The translations under genes were made by a program, and so were the position numbers. DNA of 33,260 nucleotides from a virus (taxonomy: Duplodnaviria > Caudoviricetes). Shown one piece after another: positions 2,118 through 27,140 of this stretch. The stretch spans positions 1 to 33,260 of IMG/VR virus record IMGVR_UViG_3300031519_000115, one strand, 5' to 3'. Below the pieces are notes generated by a model. It saw only the letters and a program-made list of their open reading frames with translations, was not told the origin of the DNA and made no database searches. Positions within the stretch are counted from its first letter, which is position 1; each line of letters starts with the position of its first letter.

Positions 2118-5084
2118 TTAAATGGGGCTTAATAGCCCTCCAATAAAGCGAGCCTCGTCAATTGCCTTCTGATTTCGCTTATCCATGAAGTTGTAGTCTA
2201 GAAGACCGCCTAGCCGATCCCTTAAAGGGGTCTTTGCTGGCAAGGCCATTGTTTGCGCGAATGACGCCGGGCTTCTAACATACTTCGGGATTTGCGACAG
2301 GAAGTCTAGCGAATCTACCGCACCCCCAAGTACACCCATGCCAAGCTCACCTGCGCCCGGTAGCATCTGAGATCTACGGTAAGCAGCAAGCTCTGGCGAT
2401 AACTTTCCAAATGAAGCCGAGCCCATCTCTCGCAGCCGGGCGTCCTCTCTCATCAGGGCATCAAACTTTTGATCTTCTGCCGCTTCGGTTCTTTGGTTAA
2501 TGTCGGCGTACTCTTGGATCATGTCGCCAAATGACGTCTCTTCGACCACTGGGGCTTCGCGGTATTCTCTAGGCTCTGCATATTCTGACGCAGCTAACAG
2601 CCCTGCTGCTGGCGCCGCATACTTGCGGTCAAAGCCTTTAAGCTGAACACTAGGCCCCATGCCGTCTGGATTTAAAACATCTTCAACGGTTGCATAGTTG
2701 TCTGAGCCCATCTTCTGCTGCACTTGCTCTAACAGGCCGCGATCACGGGAGTTCCACATTGCGGCGCCGTCAGGTGACAATGTAGTAGACGGGACCAGCT
2801 TGTTACCGCTTAACTCTTCTGCGGCAGCGTACATTTCACCAGCCAAACCTTGCCTGCGGTACTCTGGGTCGATCTCCGTAAGTTGTGAAGCCATGTATCC
2901 GTCGTCAAACCCGCTGTCTACCGCACTGTCTGTTCTTAAAACGCCAATGCTTTTAGTGCTATCTGGCTCAGATAAAAAATACTCTCCAACCCGACTGTCT
3001 TTCGGGTCAATCATGTCCGTAAGCTCTAATCCTCTTGCAGCTAACTTAGCTAACGACGCATCTGACTCATCACTCATTCCGGCGCCTAAGATGCCAGTCA
3101 TGGCAACAGGGGCTGCTTGCTGCGCTTTCTTGCCTGTTACGGTGCCCAACAATCCCACATCCTTTGACTGAAGATCCAAAGCAGTGCCATAGTCTTCAAC
3201 CATATTAGGCTCAACAGGGATTGCATTCCCTTGGTTCTGCGCCATAAACGACACATCGGGCTGGCCTTGATTAAACTTTTGATATGTGGCTATTTCCCAA
3301 TCTTCCGGGGCCTGACTTGGATCAAATTTTAATCTTGCAGACTCTCTAAACCCTAATTGCGCATACAAGTCAGGCAGCACTGTGTCAAAAGCATCAAGTT
3401 TGGTGCCTCCTTGCTCTAAGGCATGCATAATCATGTGAGGCGCCACACCCGTGTTTTCCCCGGTAGAAAATGCAGACACGATGTCTCCGTCAGGCTTTAG
3501 CGCGTACCCTGCCGACCCATCTTCTGAGATAAACAGCCGCAGTCCTTCGTAGTCTCCTTGACTATACGCCTCAACAGATGCCCCGTATTTTGACTGGTCC
3601 TTACCTTCTAACAGTTTCTGCCGGAATACTGCGGCGCCTTTTGCGTTTGAACTTAACTCAATGAGGTCTGGCGTTGCAACTCCAACTTCTGTCGCAACAT
3701 CTTGATACTCTGGAGGGAAGGTATACCGTGAAAGTCCTCTAGCTCCTTTTTGACCTCCAATAGTGATTGCCCCGTCGATTCCTGTTGTGTCAAACAGCGG
3801 CTCTTTTTTTCCTCTAACTTGCTTTCTGAATGCATCATATACTCTCGCTGTGGCTTCTTTTTGTGGGTTTAAAAACGTGGCCCCTTTCTCTCCAACCATC
3901 ATCTCTTTTGGGGTCAACGGTATACCCTGTTCTTGTTTTCTTGCTATGTTTGTAAATTGGTCTGCTGTGGCTCTTGCAGATTTTAGTGTTGCGCCTAATA
4001 CCCCAGCTTCGGCTTCGTCAGGGACTAAAGCCGCAGCCGCAGCCGCAGCTCCTAGTACGCCGACAGATGCAGGAGAATTTATGTTTATTCCTTTGTCTTG
4101 CATCCTGCGCAGGTCTTGCTCAGTGACTATCTTGCTTGTGTCCTGCCACTGTAATGATCTGGGAGCCAGCGGCTTGCCGCTTGCGGTTGTACGGTCCAAC
4201 AAGAAATCATAGGCAGTCACGGGCTCTTGCAGTACCCCTACGCCCTCACCGTGAAGAGAGGCGTTGTAGTCCGGGCTAAGGTTTGGCGTGAATCCGCGAT
4301 CAATATCTAAGACGCCGACATTTTGCAATGATCCGTGAGGTATGTTTAGACGATCTTGTCTTGAGGTTGCGACTCTAGCCTGACCTTCAGTTAGGCCGCC
4401 TTCTAAACGCATTTGATCAAGCGCAGCAGTAACCTCCATTCGGGTTCCGCCGCCTGTTGCATTCCATATCTTCTCAGCGTTTGGGCTATCCGCACCCGGC
4501 CAGTCAGGTATTTTGGATTTAATAAACTCATCCATTAAAGAAACGGATTTTGCAGGCGCATTCTCAAGGTTGTAATTAATCATGGTCCTGCCGATGCCGG
4601 TCCACCAATCACTAGACTGAGGGCCGCCCTCGTAAGGGAGAAGGAAAACATCTTGACCGCCGGTATCCTTACCTAGCTTCTCAACCTCTGCCTGCCTTGC
4701 TTTGGCTCTTTTTACATACTTGTTTGCAACCTTAGCATCGTTCTTCCATAGAGCTTCATCAGGCGCATAGAATATATGGTCAACACCCGTCTCCATCGTA
4801 ACTGGCCTTGCTAAAGGCTTGTTACCAATCCCGACTAAATCGTACCCAGAAGCCGTCACATCAGACTCAGGAAACATTACCCCCCGACCTTCTAATTGAG
4901 AAAGCTTAAATGGGGCCTGATCGAAGGTGCGGACGTCATTGGCAATATTAGGGCGGTAAAAATCTTCTAGGACCGCAGCGGTGCGGTTTGAGTATTTCCG
5001 GTTTACAAGACTAGGGTCAATTACGGGCTCGTCTAGCAAATCCATTAAACCCTTCAGCCCTTTTTTAATTTTTCCAATTGCCAT
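2118..5084 (-). CDS. Large multi-domain (polyvalent-type) protein with two GNAT-like domains; possibly virion-packaged
   Basis: 988 aa. GNAT-like module 1: LFISEDGSAGYALKPDGDIVSAFS...GGTKLDAFDTVLPDLYAQLGF. Module 2 has acetyl-CoA motif A (IDPEYRRQGLAGEMY...LSPDGAAMW). Hydrophobic linkers separate the modules. Confidence 0.7.
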   Translation of the reverse strand: MAIGKIKKGLKGLMDLLDEPVIDPSLVNRKYSNRTAAVLEDFYRPNIANDVRTFDQAPFKLSQLEGRGVMFPESDVTASGYDLVGIGNKPLARPVTMETGVDHIFYAPDEALWKNDAKVANKYVKRAKARQAEVEKLGKDTGGQDVFLLPYEGGPQSSDWWTGIGRTMINYNLENAPAKSVSLMDEFIKSKIPDWPGADSPNAEKIWNATGGGTRMEVTAALDQMRLEGGLTEGQARVATSRQDRLNIPHGSLQNVGVLDIDRGFTPNLSPDYNASLHGEGVGVLQEPVTAYDFLLDRTTASGKPLAPRSLQWQDTSKIVTEQDLRRMQDKGININSPASVGVLGAAAAAAALVPDEAEAGVLGATLKSARATADQFTNIARKQEQGIPLTPKEMMVGEKGATFLNPQKEATARVYDAFRKQVRGKKEPLFDTTGIDGAITIGGQKGARGLSRYTFPPEYQDVATEVGVATPDLIELSSNAKGAAVFRQKLLEGKDQSKYGASVEAYSQGDYEGLRLFISEDGSAGYALKPDGDIVSAFSTGENTGVAPHMIMHALEQGGTKLDAFDTVLPDLYAQLGFRESARLKFDPSQAPEDWEIATYQKFNQGQPDVSFMAQNQGNAIPVEPNMVEDYGTALDLQSKDVGLLGTVTGKKAQQAAPVAMTGILGAGMSDESDASLAKLAARGLELTDMIDPKDSRVGEYFLSEPDSTKSIGVLRTDSAVDSGFDDGYMASQLTEIDPEYRRQGLAGEMYAAAEELSGNKLVPSTTLSPDGAAMWNSRDRGLLEQVQQKMGSDNYATVEDVLNPDGMGPSVQLKGFDRKYAAPAAGLLAASEYAEPREYREAPVVEETSFGDMIQEYADINQRTEAAEDQKFDALMREDARLREMGSASFGKLSPELAAYRRSQMLPGAGELGMGVLGGAVDSLDFLSQIPKYVRSPASFAQTMALPAKTPLRDRLGGLLDYNFMDKRNQKAIDEARFIGGLLSPI

Positions 5085-8015: not shown

Positions 8016-8464
8016 TAATGCATCCCCCTATCGGATCGCTCTTCTTGCAGCATATGGGCAAAGCTTTGCTCTACCCGGTTACGCATGTCATCTTCTAGGT
8101 ACAGGTAGATCTTGTTTCTTACCTGCTCAATAAAATCAGCAGCATCCAGAGAGTCAGAGAAGTTGTCTAAAGCTTCTGAGAAGTACGCATCATTGTCGCA
8201 CTCGTCCTCATGGTCCTGTTCCGCATCACGGAACATAGCGGCCAGCATTCTTGATGTGCTGCCGTAGGTCATAGATAACGCAAGATCGTATCTGTCGCTG
8301 CAAGTGTGCGGATAGACGTCGTCTAACCAAGTTGGGTGGGTGTTCAGCCAAGTAAAGGCCAACATGTCCTTCTCGCTGTCGTCCAGATCGATTAGGTCAC
8401 CTTCCCATAATGGCTTCTGGCTCATCAGCCCGGCAACGATGTCATTAAGTTCATGGTAAGACAT
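8015..8464 (-). CDS. Hypothetical acidic protein
   Basis: ORF 8015..8470; start more likely ATG 8464 (TAATG coupling to the upstream gene). Confidence 0.75.
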   Translation of the reverse strand: MSYHELNDIVAGLMSQKPLWEGDLIDLDDSEKDMLAFTWLNTHPTWLDDVYPHTCSDRYDLALSMTYGSTSRMLAAMFRDAEQDHEDECDNDAYFSEALDNFSDSLDAADFIEQVRNKIYLYLEDDMRNRVEQSFAHMLQEERSDRGMH

Positions 8465-8634
8465 TAGCACACCCCCAGATTTATGCAGTCATTGTATTCC
8501 ATTGTACTAGCAGCGCAATACATGATTATGAGTATAGCCGCGCCAATCCATCCAGCGCGGTTTTCTTGTTTTTCTAGCTTAGCTTTTTCAACAGTGTTGA
8601 GTTGGCTGTAAGTCATTGAGTGACGATCTAACAT
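8464..8634 (-). CDS. Small membrane protein, 56 aa (MLDRHSMTYSQL...GWIGAAILIIMYCAAST...)
   Basis: Manual translation; AAGGGGAATAAT RBS; one hydrophobic segment. Confidence 0.7.
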   Translation of the reverse strand: MLDRHSMTYSQLNTVEKAKLEKQENRAGWIGAAILIIMYCAASTMEYNDCINLGVC

Positions 8635-8652
8635 ATTATTCCCCTTGGTTTT

Positions 8653-8829
8653 TTAATTAAAATCAAATGTATCTGGGTTAGGCTCTGCCATAAAAGCAGC
8701 GCACTCATTTAGCGCGTCAAAAGCCTCATCCCAGTCTGATATGTGACCATCGTTTGCCAGTCTAATGACAAAAGCTTTAGCGTCTGCTGGAAGTAGGTCG
8801 ATATCCATTGGCAAGTTGTTAGTGTCCAT
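8653..8829 (-). CDS. Small acidic early protein, 58 aa (MDTNNLPMDIDLLPADAKAF...)
   Basis: Manual translation; AAGGGGAATAAA RBS; first gene after a consensus sigma70 promoter. Confidence 0.7.
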   Translation of the reverse strand: MDTNNLPMDIDLLPADAKAFVIRLANDGHISDWDEAFDALNECAAFMAEPNPDTFDFN

Positions 8830-8857
8830 TTTATTCCCCTTGGTTTATTGAGGTTTA

Positions 8858-8886
8858 ATAATAGGCCTTAACCACTAAACTGTCAA
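8858..8886 (-). promoter_or_regulatory. Sigma70-type promoter TTGACA-N17-TATTAT
   Basis: -35 at 8886-8881, 17-nt spacer, -10 at 8863-8858; intergenic. Confidence 0.85.
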
Positions 8887-11420: not shown

Positions 11421-11429
11421 TTTATTCCC

Positions 11430-11735
11430 CTATAGTTTCACTCTAAGCCACTTGTCAGATACTTTTAATTCTTCTTTATTCAGTCGGTCGTATTCCGCAT
11501 CGCGGGGTTTAGACCTTCCCCCAAATGGGTCCATCGTCTCTCTAACTTGCTTGCTGGCAACCTCACCCTTGCCAACCATCCTGCTGTGCATTGTTTTGTT
11601 GTTAACGCCTGTCAGGTTAGAGATCTCGCGCAGCGTGTAGAAAGCACCCGTTTCTAGCGCCGGGTGCTCACCTACAAATTTATATTTTCTTGGTTGCTTC
11701 CCTGCTGGCCGTGAGTCGTATCGTTTATCAGGCAC
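11430..11735 (-). CDS. Hypothetical protein, possible HTH
   Basis: ORF 11430..11774; probable GTG start at 11735 overlapping the upstream gene end; YTLREISNLTGVNNKTMHSRM is HTH-like. Confidence 0.6.
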   Translation of the reverse strand: MPDKRYDSRPAGKQPRKYKFVGEHPALETGAFYTLREISNLTGVNNKTMHSRMVGKGEVASKQVRETMDPFGGRSKPRDAEYDRLNKEELKVSDKWLRVKL

Positions 11736-12102
11736 GTTTAAGCTCTCCATCGTAATAGAAGCCGAGGGTCTCAAGGTAATGCTGCTTCATCATTAGGTAG
11801 GCGTCGCCCTCTAGCCAGCTTATGTCTGTCATCTGCATGTCGATAGATTTGGCACGGATGCTGTCAGGCTTTGATTGCTTTTGCGCTTGCGGTGACCCGC
11901 CCTGATTCTGAGCCCTGCCCAGCCAAGAGTTAACAAACTTCTTGATTCCTTGGGGAGTCTTGCGCTTAGTTGGATTTGCGTCGCACCAAGAATCCATAGC
12001 CATTAGCTCTTGGTGTACGTTAATGGCCGGGTAAGCCCTTTGCCATTTAATGATATCAGCCTCTTCTGGCTGCCAGTCTTCTTTAGTGTTCAATAACATC
12101 AT
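11728..12102 (-). CDS. Protein resembling the C-terminal domain of phage replication initiators
   Basis: WQRAYPAINVHQELMAMDSWCDANPTKRKT..GIKKFVNSWLGRAQN resembles the C-terminal helical domain of O-like replication proteins; no N-terminal winged helix; AGGGGAATA RBS. Confidence 0.6.
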   Translation of the reverse strand: MMLLNTKEDWQPEEADIIKWQRAYPAINVHQELMAMDSWCDANPTKRKTPQGIKKFVNSWLGRAQNQGGSPQAQKQSKPDSIRAKSIDMQMTDISWLEGDAYLMMKQHYLETLGFYYDGELKRA

Positions 12103-12123
12103 ATTCCCCTATGATTTTTTTGA

Positions 12124-12612
12124 TTAGCCGTGATTGGCGTACTTGCCGTGCAACTGTTCGCGCTTTTTCTTTACAGCTATTTCGGCGTCTTTAAGTTCAG
12201 AGTATATACCGCAATAGATAACATCCAAATTGTATCTTACCCTTGCCATCCATTTGCCGGTCTTCTTGTGAAAGGTTACACCCTTTACGCCGCTGGTGTT
12301 GTTTTTATTCATAACCCGATTGTGGCTGTTTTGATTGCGGCTTGCTTCGCGCAGATTTTCAATCCTATTATCGTGGCGGTCATTATTGATGTGATCCAAC
12401 ATTTTAGGCAGGTAGCCATTACAATAAAGGAACGTCAATCTGTGAACGTAATAGAGCGCACCATCAACTGTGGTAGTCATGTATATGCCGCTTCGAGTCC
12501 CTACCTTTTTGCCAGCCCTGCGCTCTCCATCTTTAAAGTGCAGCGCTCCGTGATGGTAGTCGTACTTACTTTTTATTCTCTTTAGTAGCTGCTTCTCGCT
12601 TAGTGTTTTCAT
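12124..12612 (-). CDS. HNH homing endonuclease with C-terminal AP2-like DNA-binding domain
   Basis: YYVHRL...LDHINNDRHDNRIENLR (HNH_3), then NTSGVKGVTFHKKTGKWMARV; start ATG 12612 with AAGGGGAAG RBS. Confidence 0.9.
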   Translation of the reverse strand: MKTLSEKQLLKRIKSKYDYHHGALHFKDGERRAGKKVGTRSGIYMTTTVDGALYYVHRLTFLYCNGYLPKMLDHINNDRHDNRIENLREASRNQNSHNRVMNKNNTSGVKGVTFHKKTGKWMARVRYNLDVIYCGIYSELKDAEIAVKKKREQLHGKYANHG

Positions 12613-12724: not shown

Positions 12725-13080
12725 TCTCTCTCTCCTTTAGCTCGGCAAGCCTCGCCAGTTAGTAATTATAAGGTTACTGATATATTTACTTTGTGTTGCC
12801 TCAGTAGATATATGACTAAACTCAAGATGTTATAAACCCTTTTACTAGCAAAAGTAAAATTTACGATCTAAGGGCAAAAGCAACTTAGCGGTTAAAACAA
12901 TGTCTGTATCGGATATCCAACCTATCCCTCAGCAGAAACCGATCTGCTTTGGGGGCTATGTACTGGAGGGTCAACCACGCTCCGACGTTTTATCTAAGGG
13001 TTTCGTCGGCCTCTAGCCCAAACATTATTTGCAAAAAGAAAGGGAGTCTTGCGAGTGTACGGTATCGTACAATATGATAA
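12725..13080. other. Structured non-coding region, candidate replication origin or ncRNA
   Basis: No credible ORF; several nested inverted repeats (see findings); lies between the Cro-like gene and the replication gene. Confidence 0.5.
13049..13078 (+). promoter_or_regulatory. Putative antisense sigma70 promoter TTGCGA-N18-TATGAT
   Basis: Near-consensus boxes; the spacer holds the palindrome TGTACG-gtat-CGTACA; a terminator follows about 60 nt downstream. Confidence 0.45.
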
Positions 13081-13084
13081 ACTT

Positions 13085-13165
13085 GCCTTTCTTGGTCTTC
13101 GCACATCAAGTATAAGCCTTTTCCCGGCTTACTGTAAAGCCCCCGCAACGGGGGTTTTATTTATT
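13085..13165 (+). ncRNA. Candidate antisense sRNA A (about 80 nt, three hairpins)
   Basis: Bounded by a putative promoter and terminator; stems cttggt/atcaag, taagcc/ggctta and cccccg/cggggg. Confidence 0.4.
13136..13165. terminator. Rho-independent terminator, possibly bidirectional (longer U-tract on +)
   Basis: aaagcccccg-caa-cgggggttttatttatt directly at the stop codon of the Cro-like gene. Confidence 0.75.
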
Positions 13166-13364
13166 CTGAAGCTATCTGGCAAAACTGGTCCAGCGTCAAG
13201 TCAAAAATCTCGCATAATCCTTGCACAGTGTGGAGCTTCATATTCTTCTGTTTACGCCACTGTGAGACTCGCTGTCGGCTTACCTCCATTGTCTTTGCTA
13301 GTTGACTGGAGTTGATACCGCGCTGCTCTTGGGCGATTATTAAACATTGTCCTGCGTTAGTCAT
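13161..13364 (-). CDS. Cro/XRE-family HTH transcriptional regulator
   Basis: 67 aa; GINSSQLAKTMEVSRQRVSQWRK...LHTVQGLCEIFDLTLDQF. Confidence 0.88.
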   Translation of the reverse strand: MTNAGQCLIIAQEQRGINSSQLAKTMEVSRQRVSQWRKQKNMKLHTVQGLCEIFDLTLDQFCQIASE

Positions 13365-13393
13365 AATTAAATGTCCTGTGTTATTCTGATGAC

Positions 13394-13472
13394 GCAGGGC
13401 TGTTCCCCCGGTCCTGTTTTCTCCTATGGTAGTTTAGCCCCCGAAAGCCTTGTGCCGTAGGGGGCTTTTTTT
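13394..13472 (+). ncRNA. Candidate antisense sRNA B with two anti-RBS segments
   Basis: Extended -10 TGtTATTCT at 13379-13387; hairpin gcagggc/gtcctgt with a C-rich loop; terminator on the + strand. Confidence 0.5.
13436..13472 (+). terminator. Rho-independent terminator oriented against the gene flow
   Basis: agccccc...gggggct followed by a T7 run on the + strand only. Confidence 0.7.
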
Positions 13473-13474
13473 AC

Positions 13475-13789
13475 CTAGAAGGGGATATCTTCGTCCAGCT
13501 CTTCCATCGTCATATCAGCCACCTGAGCGACTGCATTCCCTGCTACCGGGGCGCCTTGCTGGCCATCAGTATAAATAACCTTTACATTCCCTAGTATTGG
13601 CGTCTGGACCTTAGCGTCACGCTCTTCTTTAGTGACTGTCTGACTAATAAAACCGTTATTCTCGTATTGATCTGCATTTTCAGTATCAACAAACGTCGTA
13701 ACGTCTAGATAGATTCCTTTTTTGCCAGTGTAAAGGCGTGACTTGTCGATTTTGGTTACGTCGATTCTCAGTGATAATCCTACTTTCAT
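13475..13789 (-). CDS. Single-stranded DNA-binding protein-like
   Basis: Acidic C-terminal tail LDEDIPF; directly follows ERF and the exonuclease. Confidence 0.75.
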   Translation of the reverse strand: MKVGLSLRIDVTKIDKSRLYTGKKGIYLDVTTFVDTENADQYENNGFISQTVTKEERDAKVQTPILGNVKVIYTDGQQGAPVAGNAVAQVADMTMEELDEDIPF

Positions 13790-14385
13790 TTTAACTTCTC
13801 CACTTGGTTTAAAATTTCCGCTACGGCCTTATTGACCTCAACAGACAGTTTTGCGATATATTCGTCATCGCGTTTAACCCGCACTAAAACATGCGGTAAC
13901 TCAGGGTGATAGGCAAAAAATTCCCACCAATCTCTCTGGGCAATCATCATGCAGCCCTGTATCTGCTGCCAGTATTTCTTTACGCCAATCTCAGGGTCTC
14001 TTAAATAGCTAACCATTGTCTTGGGCGCAGGGCATTTTATTTCCAAACCGCCTTCATTAAGTATCAACCCATCAGGCGAACAGCCAAACTCAAAGCTGGT
14101 ATCTAAGATAAATCCAGTCTCTATTACATCATTCCCAGATATGAACTCGTATGCTTCCCTAGCCTCTGGCTCAAGCTCAGTGCCTCTCTCCATCCAAGAA
14201 GTAACGTGAAAGGGCTCAGACTTGCCTGTAAGGCGTTCTGCGATTAGTTCATCTATGTACCCATCGGCTGATGTGCTTGGCTTCCCAGATAGCGTTATAA
14301 GCTTAGAAAACATACTTGCAGAAGGCTTGCCCAGTCTTGCAGCAAGCCATTCTGGTGATCCCTGCTCATGGTCTAGGATAATCAT
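13786..14385 (-). CDS. YqaJ/lambda-exonuclease family protein
   Basis: EQGSPEWLAARLG...MERGTELEPEAR...CSPDGL...LEIKCP...QIQGCM. Confidence 0.93.
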   Translation of the reverse strand: MIILDHEQGSPEWLAARLGKPSASMFSKLITLSGKPSTSADGYIDELIAERLTGKSEPFHVTSWMERGTELEPEAREAYEFISGNDVIETGFILDTSFEFGCSPDGLILNEGGLEIKCPAPKTMVSYLRDPEIGVKKYWQQIQGCMMIAQRDWWEFFAYHPELPHVLVRVKRDDEYIAKLSVEVNKAVAEILNQVEKLK

Positions 14386-14945
14386 TTCTTGGCCTCTAAC
14401 GCGGCAACAGCGCGATCATAGTGTACAGCTAGAATCTGATCCACAGAGCGAACCTTTAGCCACTTGCAGAATTTCTCGCCGTCAGCACCAGTCTCATCAA
14501 GTAATTTCTTGATGGCGATAATCTGGTCGTCAGATACAATCTTCTTATCATCACCGCGCAGTGTTGCAGACTCTGCATCATCATCCGCGCTTGGAACCCC
14601 TGCAATGGCAGATAAAGATATTCTCCGAGCATACGTCAAAGCGCTGGCGCCAGCCTGTGGGTCTCGTTTGACCATTGGCAGCGTAAATTGGCCTTCTAGC
14701 CACTGGCCAGATGTATGCATTAACCGGGTGCAAACGCCCATGCCATTCTCGTCAGTTACCGGGAACTGGGTATAGCTTAATCCGTTGTCAGCAAAAGGCT
14801 GTTTGATCGCCTTAATTACCGACGTTAGATCGGCATATTTAGACTTGAAGAATGGGTTGGCGCTGTCTTTAACAGCTCCGCCCATCTGCTCCTGCGCTTT
14901 GCATAGTGCTGTTGCCAGCTCGTTAATTAATTCACTTGATTTCAT
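14382..14945 (-). CDS. erf: ERF-family single-strand annealing protein
   Basis: NPFFKSKYADL...LMHTSGQW...GASALTYARRISLSAIAGV..DDD. Confidence 0.93.
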   Translation of the reverse strand: MKSSELINELATALCKAQEQMGGAVKDSANPFFKSKYADLTSVIKAIKQPFADNGLSYTQFPVTDENGMGVCTRLMHTSGQWLEGQFTLPMVKRDPQAGASALTYARRISLSAIAGVPSADDDAESATLRGDDKKIVSDDQIIAIKKLLDETGADGEKFCKWLKVRSVDQILAVHYDRAVAALEAKK

Positions 14946-14954
14946 GTTGACCTC

Positions 14955-15173
14955 CTACAGTCTCCAGATTCTATATCCGTTCATTTGCTTTCTAGTTGTT
15001 GCTTTAATTCCAAGCCCTTGCATCGTCAAATAAAAAGACTGACACTTGCTAAATGACTTAAAAAAGATTGAATCTCCAGATTCCATTTTCAATGCAACCT
15101 TTTGATTTTCTCCGCACCCTTTACTGCTTTTGTGCGAAACTAACTCGACACCTTTTTCAATTTCCACTTGCAC
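14955..15173 (-). CDS. Small hypothetical protein, possibly DNA-binding
   Basis: 72 aa; IEKGVEL...MESGDSIFF...GYRIWR; flanked by 13-bp direct repeats. The AGGAGG overlaps GTG 15173, so the true start may be GTG 15167. Confidence 0.75.
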   Translation of the reverse strand: MQVEIEKGVELVSHKSSKGCGENQKVALKMESGDSIFFKSFSKCQSFYLTMQGLGIKATTRKQMNGYRIWRL

Positions 15174-15309
15174 CTCCTACAGTCATTTCTTTGCTGTACT
15201 GCTCACCGTATCCAAGATCGTAAGCATCTGATTGCCCTTCTAGGGCCGGATAACCTAGAACGCAGTCATACTCGCCGCGCTCCAGATCGTTTAACTCGTT
15301 GATTCCCAT
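15157..15309 (-). CDS. Small hypothetical protein, 50 aa (MGINELNDLERGEYDC...)
   Basis: Manual translation; AGGAGG RBS. Confidence 0.7.
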   Translation of the reverse strand: MGINELNDLERGEYDCVLGYPALEGQSDAYDLGYGEQYSKEMTVGGASGN

Positions 15310-15348
15310 ATTGCCTCCTACAGCATGTGCCCCCGGAGGGGCGGTTGT

Positions 15349-15597: not shown

Positions 15598-15631
15598 TTT
15601 GTAGCCCTTTTGTTTTTTTGATTGAGGTTCT

Positions 15632-24932: not shown

Positions 24933-27140
24933 TTATAGGTCCTTGTACAGTTCACCGTAGTTTACAGCCATATAGCCGGATGGGGTGGTAACTACCATCT
25001 CAGGCATCACCTTCTCTACTTCCTGAGCAATTACACCCAGTGTCATGTGGTTGTCTAAGCCCTTATCTATGGCGTCCTCAGTCCAATCCCAAGTGTAGAG
25101 ACCTAAGCCATTTGGCAGGTTTCCTACTTGGTTAATATTGGTCTTCAGTCGTGCGTCAGAACCAAACAAGCCTGCTGCCATTGTCAGGTAATCTGTAGCG
25201 CCAAGGTCTTTACGGGTTTGCTGGCTCTGAGGTATTGAAGATGCTCCAAGTGCCTGAGACAGTAATCCGATAGACTGGTATGGCGACTGACGGTAACCTT
25301 CAAACTGAGCTTTAGCCGCATCAATAAGCTGCTGCTGGATAGCCTGCTGAATCATACCCTGCTGAGCAAGGTTCTGGTTAACAGTCTGGCCCATTCCGAA
25401 GCCAAGATTAGATAGCGAGCCTAACTGACCAGCCGCACCTAGACGCTGACCAGATCCAGCCAATCCTGCCTGCTGATTAGCTAACTGAGCCGCCTGAGAC
25501 TGCTGAGCGTTAAACTGTCGAGATTGGTTAATCGCATTCTGGTTATTCATCATCTGCGTATTGGCAGCACTAGATCCAAACTGCCTAGCTTGATTTAGCG
25601 CGGCCTGATTAGATAGGCTTGCAACATTACCCGCCTGAGCACCAAACTGATTTGCCTGATTCATTGCGGCAGCATTAGTGAGCGCAGCAGTGTTACCTGC
25701 CTGAGCACCAAACTGAGAAGCTGCTTGTTGCTGTGCCGACGCCTGAGCTGCTGCTTGGTTTTGAGCCGATGCACCAAATTGTGAAGCTTGATTAGCCGCC
25801 TGTGCGCCAAATTGCCCGGCTTGATTAAGGGCGTTTTGATTTGCCAAAGCAGCCTGATTAGCAGCGCTTGCTCCAAACTGTGAAGCCGCCTGCTGTTGCG
25901 CAGATGCTTGAGCAGCAGCCTGATTCTGAGCAGATGCTCCAAATTGCGAAGCCTGATTCGCAGCAGCTTGATTTGCCAGAGAAGCCTGATTAGCTGAAGA
26001 CGCGCCAAACTCACTAGCCCTCATACCGGCAGACTGATTAGCAAGAGCTGCTTGCTGGGCCAAATTGGCAGTAGTTGTGCCAGCCTGAAGTCCAGCTTGC
26101 TGATTAGCAAGACCGGCCTGCATTCTTGTGGCGATATCTTGCTGGGCCATTCCTTGAGCCTGATTGAATCCAGCCTGTCTAAGTTGCCCGGCAGACTTTG
26201 CAGCCTGATCAGCAAATGCTCTGTTTGTTTCCGACTCCATAATACCCTGTCGAGAACCACCGAAAGCGCCAGCAGCAGTTGCTTGAGCACCAACATCGTT
26301 AAGCGACATTTGGCGAGCCCTGTCTAGGTCAGACAATGTAGATTGAACTACTTGGCTTTCATATGGGTTAATGTATTGGCCAAGGTTTGTGCTTCCTAGC
26401 TGCCCTGCGGCAACATCACGGGATTGGACAACAGGTGATGCAGCTATTCTTTCAGCTTCAAATCCAGTAGCCCCTGTTCTTTCGGCGCCGTATCCTTGCG
26501 CGTTTACATTAGCAGCCTGAAAACCTTGCGAGCCGGTTTGAGCTGGGTTATAGCCTTGCGATCCGTAACCAGTAGATTCTACGCCAGCACCTTCAAACCC
26601 TCTTGCTCCAGCTCTAGTCGCGCCATAACCTTGGGCGCCAGTGCGAGCAGCTCCATAACCCTGAGCACGGCCTTGAGATGCTCCATAGCCGGATGAATTA
26701 ACATTTAACGGCTGATACATCATCTCTCTACCAGCTCCAGCCATAGCGCCTTGTATGCCCCTTGCTGCGCTTTGGTTAATGTTGGGTGGTTGAGCTGAGC
26801 CGCCACCTTTTCCGCCGCCACTGCCGGGATTTTGACCGGGGACATCCATTGGATCGCCTTGCATTACAGGGCCTTGATCTGTAGATGGACCGCCGGGAGG
26901 GGGAAAGCCACCGGGGGGAATAAGCGGAATACTTTGTCTGCCGAGCTCTTCAACACCAACGGAAGGTAAAGCTGGGCCAAGCGTTCCAGTTCCGGGTGTC
27001 GGGCTGACCACATTTTGTATATTTGGGTTAAAAGGCACTTGGGAAGTTGGGCCAAACGTCCCCGGTCCCGGTTTAAGGCCACCCATCATCTGCTGTCCAA
27101 CCATCCCCGTGTTCTGAGGTACACCGTTTCCACCAGCCAT
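24933..27140 (-). CDS. Repeat-rich ejection/pilot-like protein with C-terminal Peptidase_S74 intramolecular chaperone
   Basis: 735 aa; 10-aa G[YF] repeats; 11/22-aa QFG repeats; C-terminal SDARLKTNI...GVIAQEVEKVMPEMV...VNYGEL. Confidence 0.75.
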   Translation of the reverse strand: MAGGNGVPQNTGMVGQQMMGGLKPGPGTFGPTSQVPFNPNIQNVVSPTPGTGTLGPALPSVGVEELGRQSIPLIPPGGFPPPGGPSTDQGPVMQGDPMDVPGQNPGSGGGKGGGSAQPPNINQSAARGIQGAMAGAGREMMYQPLNVNSSGYGASQGRAQGYGAARTGAQGYGATRAGARGFEGAGVESTGYGSQGYNPAQTGSQGFQAANVNAQGYGAERTGATGFEAERIAASPVVQSRDVAAGQLGSTNLGQYINPYESQVVQSTLSDLDRARQMSLNDVGAQATAAGAFGGSRQGIMESETNRAFADQAAKSAGQLRQAGFNQAQGMAQQDIATRMQAGLANQQAGLQAGTTTANLAQQAALANQSAGMRASEFGASSANQASLANQAAANQASQFGASAQNQAAAQASAQQQAASQFGASAANQAALANQNALNQAGQFGAQAANQASQFGASAQNQAAAQASAQQQAASQFGAQAGNTAALTNAAAMNQANQFGAQAGNVASLSNQAALNQARQFGSSAANTQMMNNQNAINQSRQFNAQQSQAAQLANQQAGLAGSGQRLGAAGQLGSLSNLGFGMGQTVNQNLAQQGMIQQAIQQQLIDAAKAQFEGYRQSPYQSIGLLSQALGASSIPQSQQTRKDLGATDYLTMAAGLFGSDARLKTNINQVGNLPNGLGLYTWDWTEDAIDKGLDNHMTLGVIAQEVEKVMPEMVVTTPSGYMAVNYGELYKDL

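Follow-up and report, generated by a model that had tools for sequence, protein, structure and literature searches.

Does the gap between the HTH gene and the recombination genes of this virus encode an RNA that acts on the virus's own gene starts? The window, i.e. the whole stretch of 33,260 nucleotides analysed here, is a whole virus record with a completeness of 98% (CheckV). Its called genes all lie on the minus strand and comprise portal, scaffold, capsid, terminase and lysis genes and an early block coding for an Erf-like annealing protein, an exonuclease, a 104-aa protein with an acidic, SSB-like DEDIPF tail, a Cro/C1-type HTH protein and HNH, NinB- and NinG-like proteins. A preliminary description had proposed that the gap holds an antisense RNA with two segments complementary to repeated ribosome-binding sites (RBSs), and the motif positions it gave were all correct: TGTTATTCT at 13379-13387, TGTTCCCC at 13401-13408, TCTCCTATGG at 13420-13429 and a terminator at 13436-13472 with its seven T on the plus strand. 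The features of the locus are as follows.

13161..13364, minus strand: Cro/C1-type HTH gene (Pfam HTH_26, E=1.8e-8), with an RBS that abuts the RNA1 -10 on the opposite strand
13379..13387, plus strand: extended -10 TGnTAnnnT, TGTTATTCT in the window; five consensus bases invariant in 57/57 gap sequences, n positions variable, 18 different 9-mers
13394..13472, plus strand: predicted small RNA (RNA1), ~79 nt, its start placed from the -10
13394..13417, plus strand: hairpin 1 with the C-rich loop UUCCCC (13403-13408), the putative secondary seed
13420..13429, plus strand: linker seed UCUCCUAUGG (TCTCCTATGG in DNA) with the core CCUAUGG at 13423-13429, the putative main seed; invariant in 57/57
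13436..13472, plus strand: intrinsic terminator, seven T on the plus strand only
13475..13789, minus strand: 104-aa gene with an acidic DEDIPF tail, convergent with RNA1; PHROG of unknown function, no Pfam match
13786..14945, minus strand: exonuclease and Erf-like genes, a recombination pair (PHROGs 149 and 2324)

The -10 and the terminator suggest that RNA1 is a primary transcript with a promoter and a terminator of its own. Between the hairpin with the C-rich loop and the terminator sits the linker, described here as CUCCUAUGG. The loop had been placed at 13401-13408; TGTTCCCC does stand there on the plus strand, but the loop proper covers only 13403-13408, its UUCCCC being predicted unpaired with a probability of 1.0, and the UG belongs to the stem. 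The linker is predicted to be exposed in 85 of 89 distinct RNAs. In the window copy, the fold of lowest energy has the linker paired to the 3' arm of the same RNA (-30.5 vs. -28.6 kcal/mol), so that the seed is hidden by 1.9 kcal/mol and has a predicted unpaired probability of 0.21; this may be a tuning device or a weakening of the RNA. The 3' arm of the terminator holds a self-complementary, target-like site, CCGTAGGGG, at 13455-13463. An optional insert of ~15 nt in the terminator loop (13443-13459, plus strand), present in some clades only, makes an inner hairpin together with this self-complementary site. Runs of at least three A ahead of the terminator stem occur in 0/97 distinct elements. 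Any signal of a minus-strand promoter that would serve the HTH gene and overlap this -10 is indistinguishable from the symmetry of the plus-strand -10.

Searches with the two flanking proteins yielded 116 loci with 57 distinct gap sequences. Across an alignment of the latter, the pattern TGnTAnnnT and the sequence CCTATGG never vary outside coding sequence, nor do the T-run and parts of the terminator stem. Of 241 loci that were selected by protein and have the HTH gene, 232 contain the RNA1 element, a count that includes repeat rows of the same loci (97 distinct elements overall), and the nine misses end within 75 nt of the HTH start. The predicted RNA has a median length of ~60 nt in relatives, and the covariance model made here has one strong match in the window. 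Among 49 distinct stems of hairpin 1, counted in a strand-neutral manner, G-T oppositions outnumber A-C oppositions by 24 to 10; native halves fold with a median of -8.7 kcal/mol and chimeric halves with -5.0 kcal/mol, and the plus strand of the hairpin is more stable than the minus strand in 37 of 53. A column-wise count gave 66% paired positions vs. 72% in a slid control, on a model-fitted alignment with a structure line that is mis-registered at the variable loops. The seed is kept across HTH proteins with as little as ~38% identity, and its conservation far exceeds that of each phage target taken singly. RNA1 adjoins the HTH gene even where the recombination block is inverted, and it is present also in genomes with few homologs of the virion genes of the window. 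This comparative evidence indicates that RNA1 is a real, uncatalogued and conserved phage small-RNA gene on the plus strand. At five loci (L077, L104, L107, L113 and L116), the recombination block, RNA1 and the HTH gene are inverted as a unit relative to the lysis and replication genes.

The group that carries the element is large and consists of uncultured marine phages. A pattern of loop plus seed matched viral contigs 113 times, and the 24 matches with both promoter and terminator all belong to this phage group. Because the pattern scans took in part of the viral collection (8, 17 and 3 of its 64 parts), further seed variants may exist. A seed pattern run against genomes (6/64 parts scanned) gave 120 chance matches, 0 of them with promoter and terminator together. 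No close relative of the phage was found among GTDB genomes or cultured phages; its capsid matches fall in MAG bins of scattered taxa, and the RNA1 model had no match at 13 capsid-match and 7 erf-match loci in the genomes searched. Rfam returned only an unrelated chance match at E<=1 for the window and none at the gathering threshold for three variant loci. No description of RNA1 was met in the literature searched, most subscription papers being outside its reach, and the seed string is absent from the six supplementary files of PMC10690425 that were searched. A side observation on the virus itself is a 988-aa protein encoded between the terminase and virion genes (2118-5084); it has no Pfam match, and its only PHROG match, to a family without known function, is short.

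The sites in the window with which RNA1 is predicted to pair are the following.

15314..15323, minus strand: RBS of a 50-aa gene (15157-15309); 12 contiguous linker pairs; many relatives retain the motif, though the gene behind it often differs
15173..15182, minus strand: RBS of gene 14955-15173; 10 linker pairs; probably copied from the erf site when a gene was inserted
14951..14960, minus strand: RBS of the gene for the Erf-like annealing protein; 11 linker pairs; best-conserved target
12103..12116, minus strand: RBS of a 124-aa gene (11728-12102), the rep site; 12 linker pairs, also loop pairs; not a conserved target in most relatives
11423..11438, minus strand: RBS of the NinB-like gene; 12 linker pairs, 8 loop pairs; only in the closest relatives
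8832..8844, minus strand: RBS of gene 8653-8829; 8 loop pairs, or 11 linker pairs with one bulge
8637..8649, minus strand: RBS of gene 8464-8634; 8 loop pairs, or 11 linker pairs with one bulge

On the minus strand, GGGGAATA occurs at exactly the four starts named by the preliminary description for 8-bp pairing with the loop (8634, 8829, 11420 and 12102), but for the start at 12102 pair number eight involves the start codon's A; on the plus strand it occurs once, at 26915. The second family, CTGTAGGAGG, has the three minus-strand copies expected for 10-bp pairing with the linker (14951, 15173 and 15314), but the first two probably represent one duplicated site, since the gene that they flank is missing in sister genomes and 13 letters fit either side of the joint. 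The two RBS families do not divide cleanly between the two seeds: the linker can form 12 bp at ninB and at rep as well, two sites from the GGGGAATA family, and with these two included it forms 10-12 bp at five window starts. The gene at 8653-8829 is the first gene after a TTGACA-17-TATTAT promoter. One further candidate, AAACCAAGTGGAG before the 104-aa gene, was rejected because it is retained even where the seed has ceased to fit it and because it falls within the C-terminus of the exonuclease. Two arrangements around these RBSs were also seen. A 72-aa gene (14945-15172) is missing in sister contigs, and the repeated RBS motif stands at the joint; gene cassettes may be joined at such RBS repeats. 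Several early RBSs on the minus strand are preceded by an A-rich leader of the AATCAAAAAA type, at 8640-8665, 8835-8860, 12105-12130 and 15600-15630.

Whether such pairing exceeds chance is answered differently by the window and by its relatives. Within the window alone, the summed energy of the five best duplexes around the CUCCU core beat shuffled flanks at p=0.04 and random flanks at p=0.16, and a loop duplex test gave p=0.03. Of the 21 early/middle starts, 5 have contiguous linker runs of at least 10 bp; among the 26 late starts there are none (p=0.013). This early/late difference was absent (p=0.20) when the canonical 16S anti-SD was used as a control. The pairing thus looks only weakly better than chance from the window genome alone and clearly so from relatives. 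The erf RBS in relatives mostly reads GACYRTAGGRG, and the first gene after the HTH/origin side often carries GAGCCATAGGAG, whichever gene stands there. The linker complement CYRTAGGRG was found at 33/318 dereplicated AGGRG-type RBSs vs. 9/932 in 139 unrelated loci (p=3e-13) and is spread over 22 of 150 gene families; 149 of its 157 sense-strand occurrences lie before a start codon, as against 32/68 and 10/30 for one-base near-misses. Four relatives with erf and exonuclease genes that lack the HTH gene and RNA1 in the stretch examined, all of them fragments, have the motif at 0/17 AGGRG starts. The seed is invariant in all 57 gaps, and the target sites vary mostly at positions that tolerate G-U pairing.

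The relatives also set bounds on the number of targets. The early-vs-late comparison of linker sites in four complete relatives was not significant (20/274 vs. 0/28, p=0.23), and complete relatives have only ~2-4 credible strong sites each, instead of the seven implied by the preliminary description; conservation as a target is lacking for rep, for ninB and for the 104-aa gene. Some target sites lie in the codons of the upstream gene, several are copies of one mobile leader, and repeated RBSs arise in part through duplication at gene insertions. Other annealing proteins take the place of the Erf-like gene at a number of loci (L033, L063, L084, L108, L181 and others), and there the CYRTAGGAG site ahead of the gene is often retained. 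As for the loop, GGGGAA stands at 103/1949 starts vs. 50/2752 in controls, and a clade with the loop CCCCUUAC has GTAAG[GC]GG at 3/42 starts, in two gene families, vs. 2/1999; phages lacking the C-run of the loop keep GGGGAAY at 2/59 starts. The UCCC of the loop is kept in most relatives and lost in L033/L034 and L486. It is plausible that the loop is a second seed, less well supported than the linker, and we regard the linker as the main seed and the C-rich loop as secondary.

A change in the seed itself offered a natural comparison. A seed-free pattern found phages with CUCUCCUAGUUU or CUCUCCUAGUUGGUUUU in place of the U-type seed, and the set was extended via the HTH protein to 31 viral and 28 metagenome loci, the two sets overlapping. 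In one lineage, the seed has changed from CCUAUGG to CCUAG (CUCCUAG; G-type), and the erf RBS of these phages reads TACTAGGRG or TATTAGGAG, with a pyrimidine where U-type phages have a purine, as the G in the seed requires. The U-seed is the better partner for 70 of 77 U-type erf sites and 2 of 8 G-type ones, and for 5/5 methylase sites of U-type phages vs. 0/3 of G-type phages; one methylase start could form 16 pairs and one bulge with its own long variant seed. In G-type phages the U-type motif CYRTAGGRG is left at 2/75 RBSs (p=0.04), and the complement of the G-type seed occurs at 8/75, compared with 30/932 in unrelated loci (p=0.005) and 19/318 in U-type phages (p=0.20); by gene family the counts are 6/56 and 16/150 in U-type. 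HTH_39-gene sites in short-seed G-type phages still fit the old U-seed better in 5 of 10 cases, and the switch at the erf site goes along with the change of a Val/Ile codon to Leu in the gene upstream. Several orthologous sites (erf, methylase) change with the seed, as the co-variation foreseen for this RNA would have it, but some sites keep the U-type form and only one event is involved: G-type phages form one clade (support 96/92) on an erf tree that includes non-orthologous annealing proteins and long branches and that was used solely to count seed changes.

The same design was seen outside this phage group. A pattern that specifies neither loop nor seed brought up, in addition, a group of unrelated phages with an SNF2 helicase, an AlpA-like HTH protein, SSB and a DUF927 protein (L484, L488, L491, L513, L550, L527 and L515), in which an extended -10, a hairpin, GUCGUUCUCCU and a terminator lie on the same strand as genes with the RBS AGGAGAACGAC. 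Exact same-strand 9-mer complements precede start codons in 8/8 cases, from 5 of the 11 loci examined. The seeds CUUCGUUCUCC or AUCUCUCC go with the sites GGAGAACGAA or GGAGAGR, and the RBSs are of a co-varying GGAGAAC type. L527 has, in addition, an int-alpA RNA at 4383-4454. Among three Roseobacter phages related to this group, the stretches examined gave one loose architecture match only, in the cultured phage CRP-406, where a promoter, a C-rich segment and a terminator fall in an intergenic gap (L787:4429-4515).

Taken together, the comparisons lend good but not conclusive support to trans pairing of RNA1 with the phage's own early RBSs, and we put at roughly two in three the probability that a conserved plus-strand RNA of 60-80 nt pairs in trans with the RBSs of several of the phage's own early genes and blocks their translation. 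Starting from the anatomy, conservation, complementarity, enrichment at starts and one compensatory change observed above, we infer the later steps as follows. Host sigma-70 polymerase would transcribe RNA1 from the extended -10; the exposed linker would pair over the SD and the phage-specific bases upstream of it, with help from the C-rich loop; and ribosomes would be occluded at the recombinase gene, at the first gene after the HTH/origin-side promoter and at the front genes of early and replication operons. Early gene expression would then be damped or ended as RNA1 accumulates. The phage appears to give several of its genes a private extension of the SD, so that one RNA addresses them as a regulon. 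If confirmed, small marine phages in which neither a repressor nor an integrase is apparent would have a timing or lifestyle control, and such RNAs could be searched for by this signature; the natural U- and G-type pairs of seed and target alleles make a ready compensatory test that needs no phage culture.

How does such an RNA compare with known ones? The c4 RNA of phages P1 and P7 is processed from a precursor by RNase P. Its loop-placed sequences pair near the RBS of a phage mRNA, it controls antirepressor synthesis within a C1-repressor circuit, and P1/P7 heteroimmunity rests on c4 sequence differences, as described in PMC12197685 and PMC8198154. RNA1 resembles c4 (RF01695) as a phage RNA predicted to pair with complementary sites near RBSs; of the two short exposed segments that a c4-like design would call for, the linker is well supported and the loop partly. 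It differs from c4 in having no Rfam C4 match and no antirepressor, integrase or S24 repressor found with it, in predicted targets that spread over several operons, and in a seed that consists of the anti-SD core plus an extension; among the c4 motifs listed for phages in the available part of PMC2864571, none matches RNA1. In S. aureus, RsaE and RNAIII combine a 5' hairpin, an unpaired UCCC and a 3' terminator and pair with the SDs of several mRNAs, and their specificity was proposed to come from flanking bases (PMC2790875). RNA1 shows the unpaired UCCC motif, the 5' hairpin and the 3' intrinsic terminator of this class, whereas RsaE and RNAIII are chromosomal, Gram-positive and directed at host genes, and RNA1 has the main seed CUCCUAUGG and predicted targets in the phage itself; Rfam gave no match that would make it a homolog of the RsaE or RNAIII families. 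Overall, RNA1 works like P1 c4 and RsaE-type RNAs, as far as prediction goes, and belongs to neither family. Known phage RNAs, as far as PMC12197685 covers them, have one phage target, mostly in cis, or act on host functions.

A bolder version of trans regulation would make RNA1 the stand-in for a CI-type repressor in an abundant integrase-free marine group, holding off recombination, replication-leader and early operons in a carrier state or as a superinfection block, with seed variants as immunity groups, a read-through complement that flips the switch, and a design that recurs in unrelated phages as a general control layer. We consider this unlikely. Independently of this version, the earlier remark that no CI repressor or integrase is recognisable is supported: no tyrosine integrase was found in the window genome, integrase and S24-type repressor domains are absent from 4/4 near-complete relatives, and no ant-like PHROG occurs among the 53 window proteins, S24 having been checked in the window via PHROGs only. 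A seed so nearly invariant is easier to reconcile with a developmental damper than with immunity types that diversify. Transcripts reading through from the recombination operon would be perfectly complementary to RNA1, and one may speculate that they serve as a sponge.

The remaining readings part with pairing to the phage's own starts as the main function, and we take them in falling order of probability. RNA1 could be real and yet act mainly on host mRNAs or as a general anti-SD decoy, with the phage sites secondary, which we hold to be distinctly improbable. Conservation of the seed, over HTH proteins as far apart as ~38% identity, goes well beyond that of individual phage targets, complete relatives offer just 2-4 strong sites, and PreS, VpdS and DicF act on host functions (PMC12197685), all of which would suit such a role; but the exact complement is in 10-fold excess at the phage's own starts and this excess is lost upon seed change, whereas bystander mRNAs should avoid the seed.

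Next comes action in cis, in which the plus-strand unit limits read-through into the HTH gene via convergent transcription or a perfect duplex. The unit always lies between the recombination genes and the HTH gene, inverted blocks included, and read-through is likely since the hairpin has no T-run on the minus strand. Yet cis antisense needs no fixed sequence, and here the seed is invariant and matches distant RBSs. The preliminary description had also called RNA1 cis-antisense to the leader of the HTH gene, which needs narrowing: RNA1 occupies 13394-13472, with the stop at 13475 on one side and the HTH RBS (~13370-13378) on the other, and it begins ~16 nt upstream of that RBS and leaves it uncovered, so it could be cis-antisense to a read-through transcript only. 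The phage RNAs P22 sar, lambda OOP and aQ are short, start from promoters opposite genes and regulate development (PMC12197685); they are cis-encoded against one target, whereas RNA1 overlaps no RBS and matches distant sites imperfectly. As the main function we find cis action very unlikely, although it may occur in addition to the trans mechanism.

Scarcely likely, too, is that the functional copy is on the mRNA strand, with CCATAGGAG and GGGGAAC as binding sites for a translational regulator protein, present both in the RBSs and in a gap segment that serves as decoy or leader. On its minus strand, the gap does resemble the hairpin-plus-RBS leaders before early genes, and T4 offers a precedent in the protein endonuclease RegB, which inactivates early mRNAs as a group via the sequence GGAG (PMC1702504), a functional analogy to RNA1 only, as RegB is not an RNA. 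Promoter and terminator point the opposite way, however, the G-T vs. A-C oppositions (24 to 10) speak for the plus strand, the gap copy is invariant and the RBS copies vary mostly as wobble pairing allows, and RNA and targets share one strand in the second phage group, so that the RNA's complement is not in those mRNAs. Finally, the least probable reading by our estimate, that overlapping promoter, RBS and terminator signals merely coexist with chance pairing of C/U-rich sequence to SD sites and no functional RNA exists, draws on promoter- and terminator-like sites being at chance frequency in the region (18 vs. 19.8 and 19 vs. 14.5) and on the weak single-genome statistics, but runs against a non-coding seed that is invariant group-wide between co-varying stems and against the target statistics.

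On the other side of the HTH gene, a second candidate was noticed.

13075..13161, plus strand: RNA2 candidate gene with a -10, two hairpins and a terminator; found at 145/271 loci with sequence downstream of the HTH gene

RNA2 has a conserved CCTTTCT start, a co-varying stem with the loop YCGCA and a second, variable hairpin that is often C-rich in its loop; the complement of the RNA2 loop showed no enrichment at gene starts. A minus-strand promoter TTTACA-18-TATACT (13138-13109) overlaps RNA2, and both hexamers are kept in RNA2-bearing relatives. The predicted leader at 13103-13026 (minus strand) forms a long hairpin ending near a U-run, one arm of which is complementary to the 5' end of RNA2, and the two could possibly constitute an attenuator. 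A clade-specific palindrome just upstream of the RNA2 -10 (13056-13071) is a possible operator for the HTH protein. Farther on, the non-coding stretch 12740-13030, which has no Rfam match, carries conserved blocks and hairpins group-wide, also where RNA2 is missing, and is possibly an origin or a structured leader.
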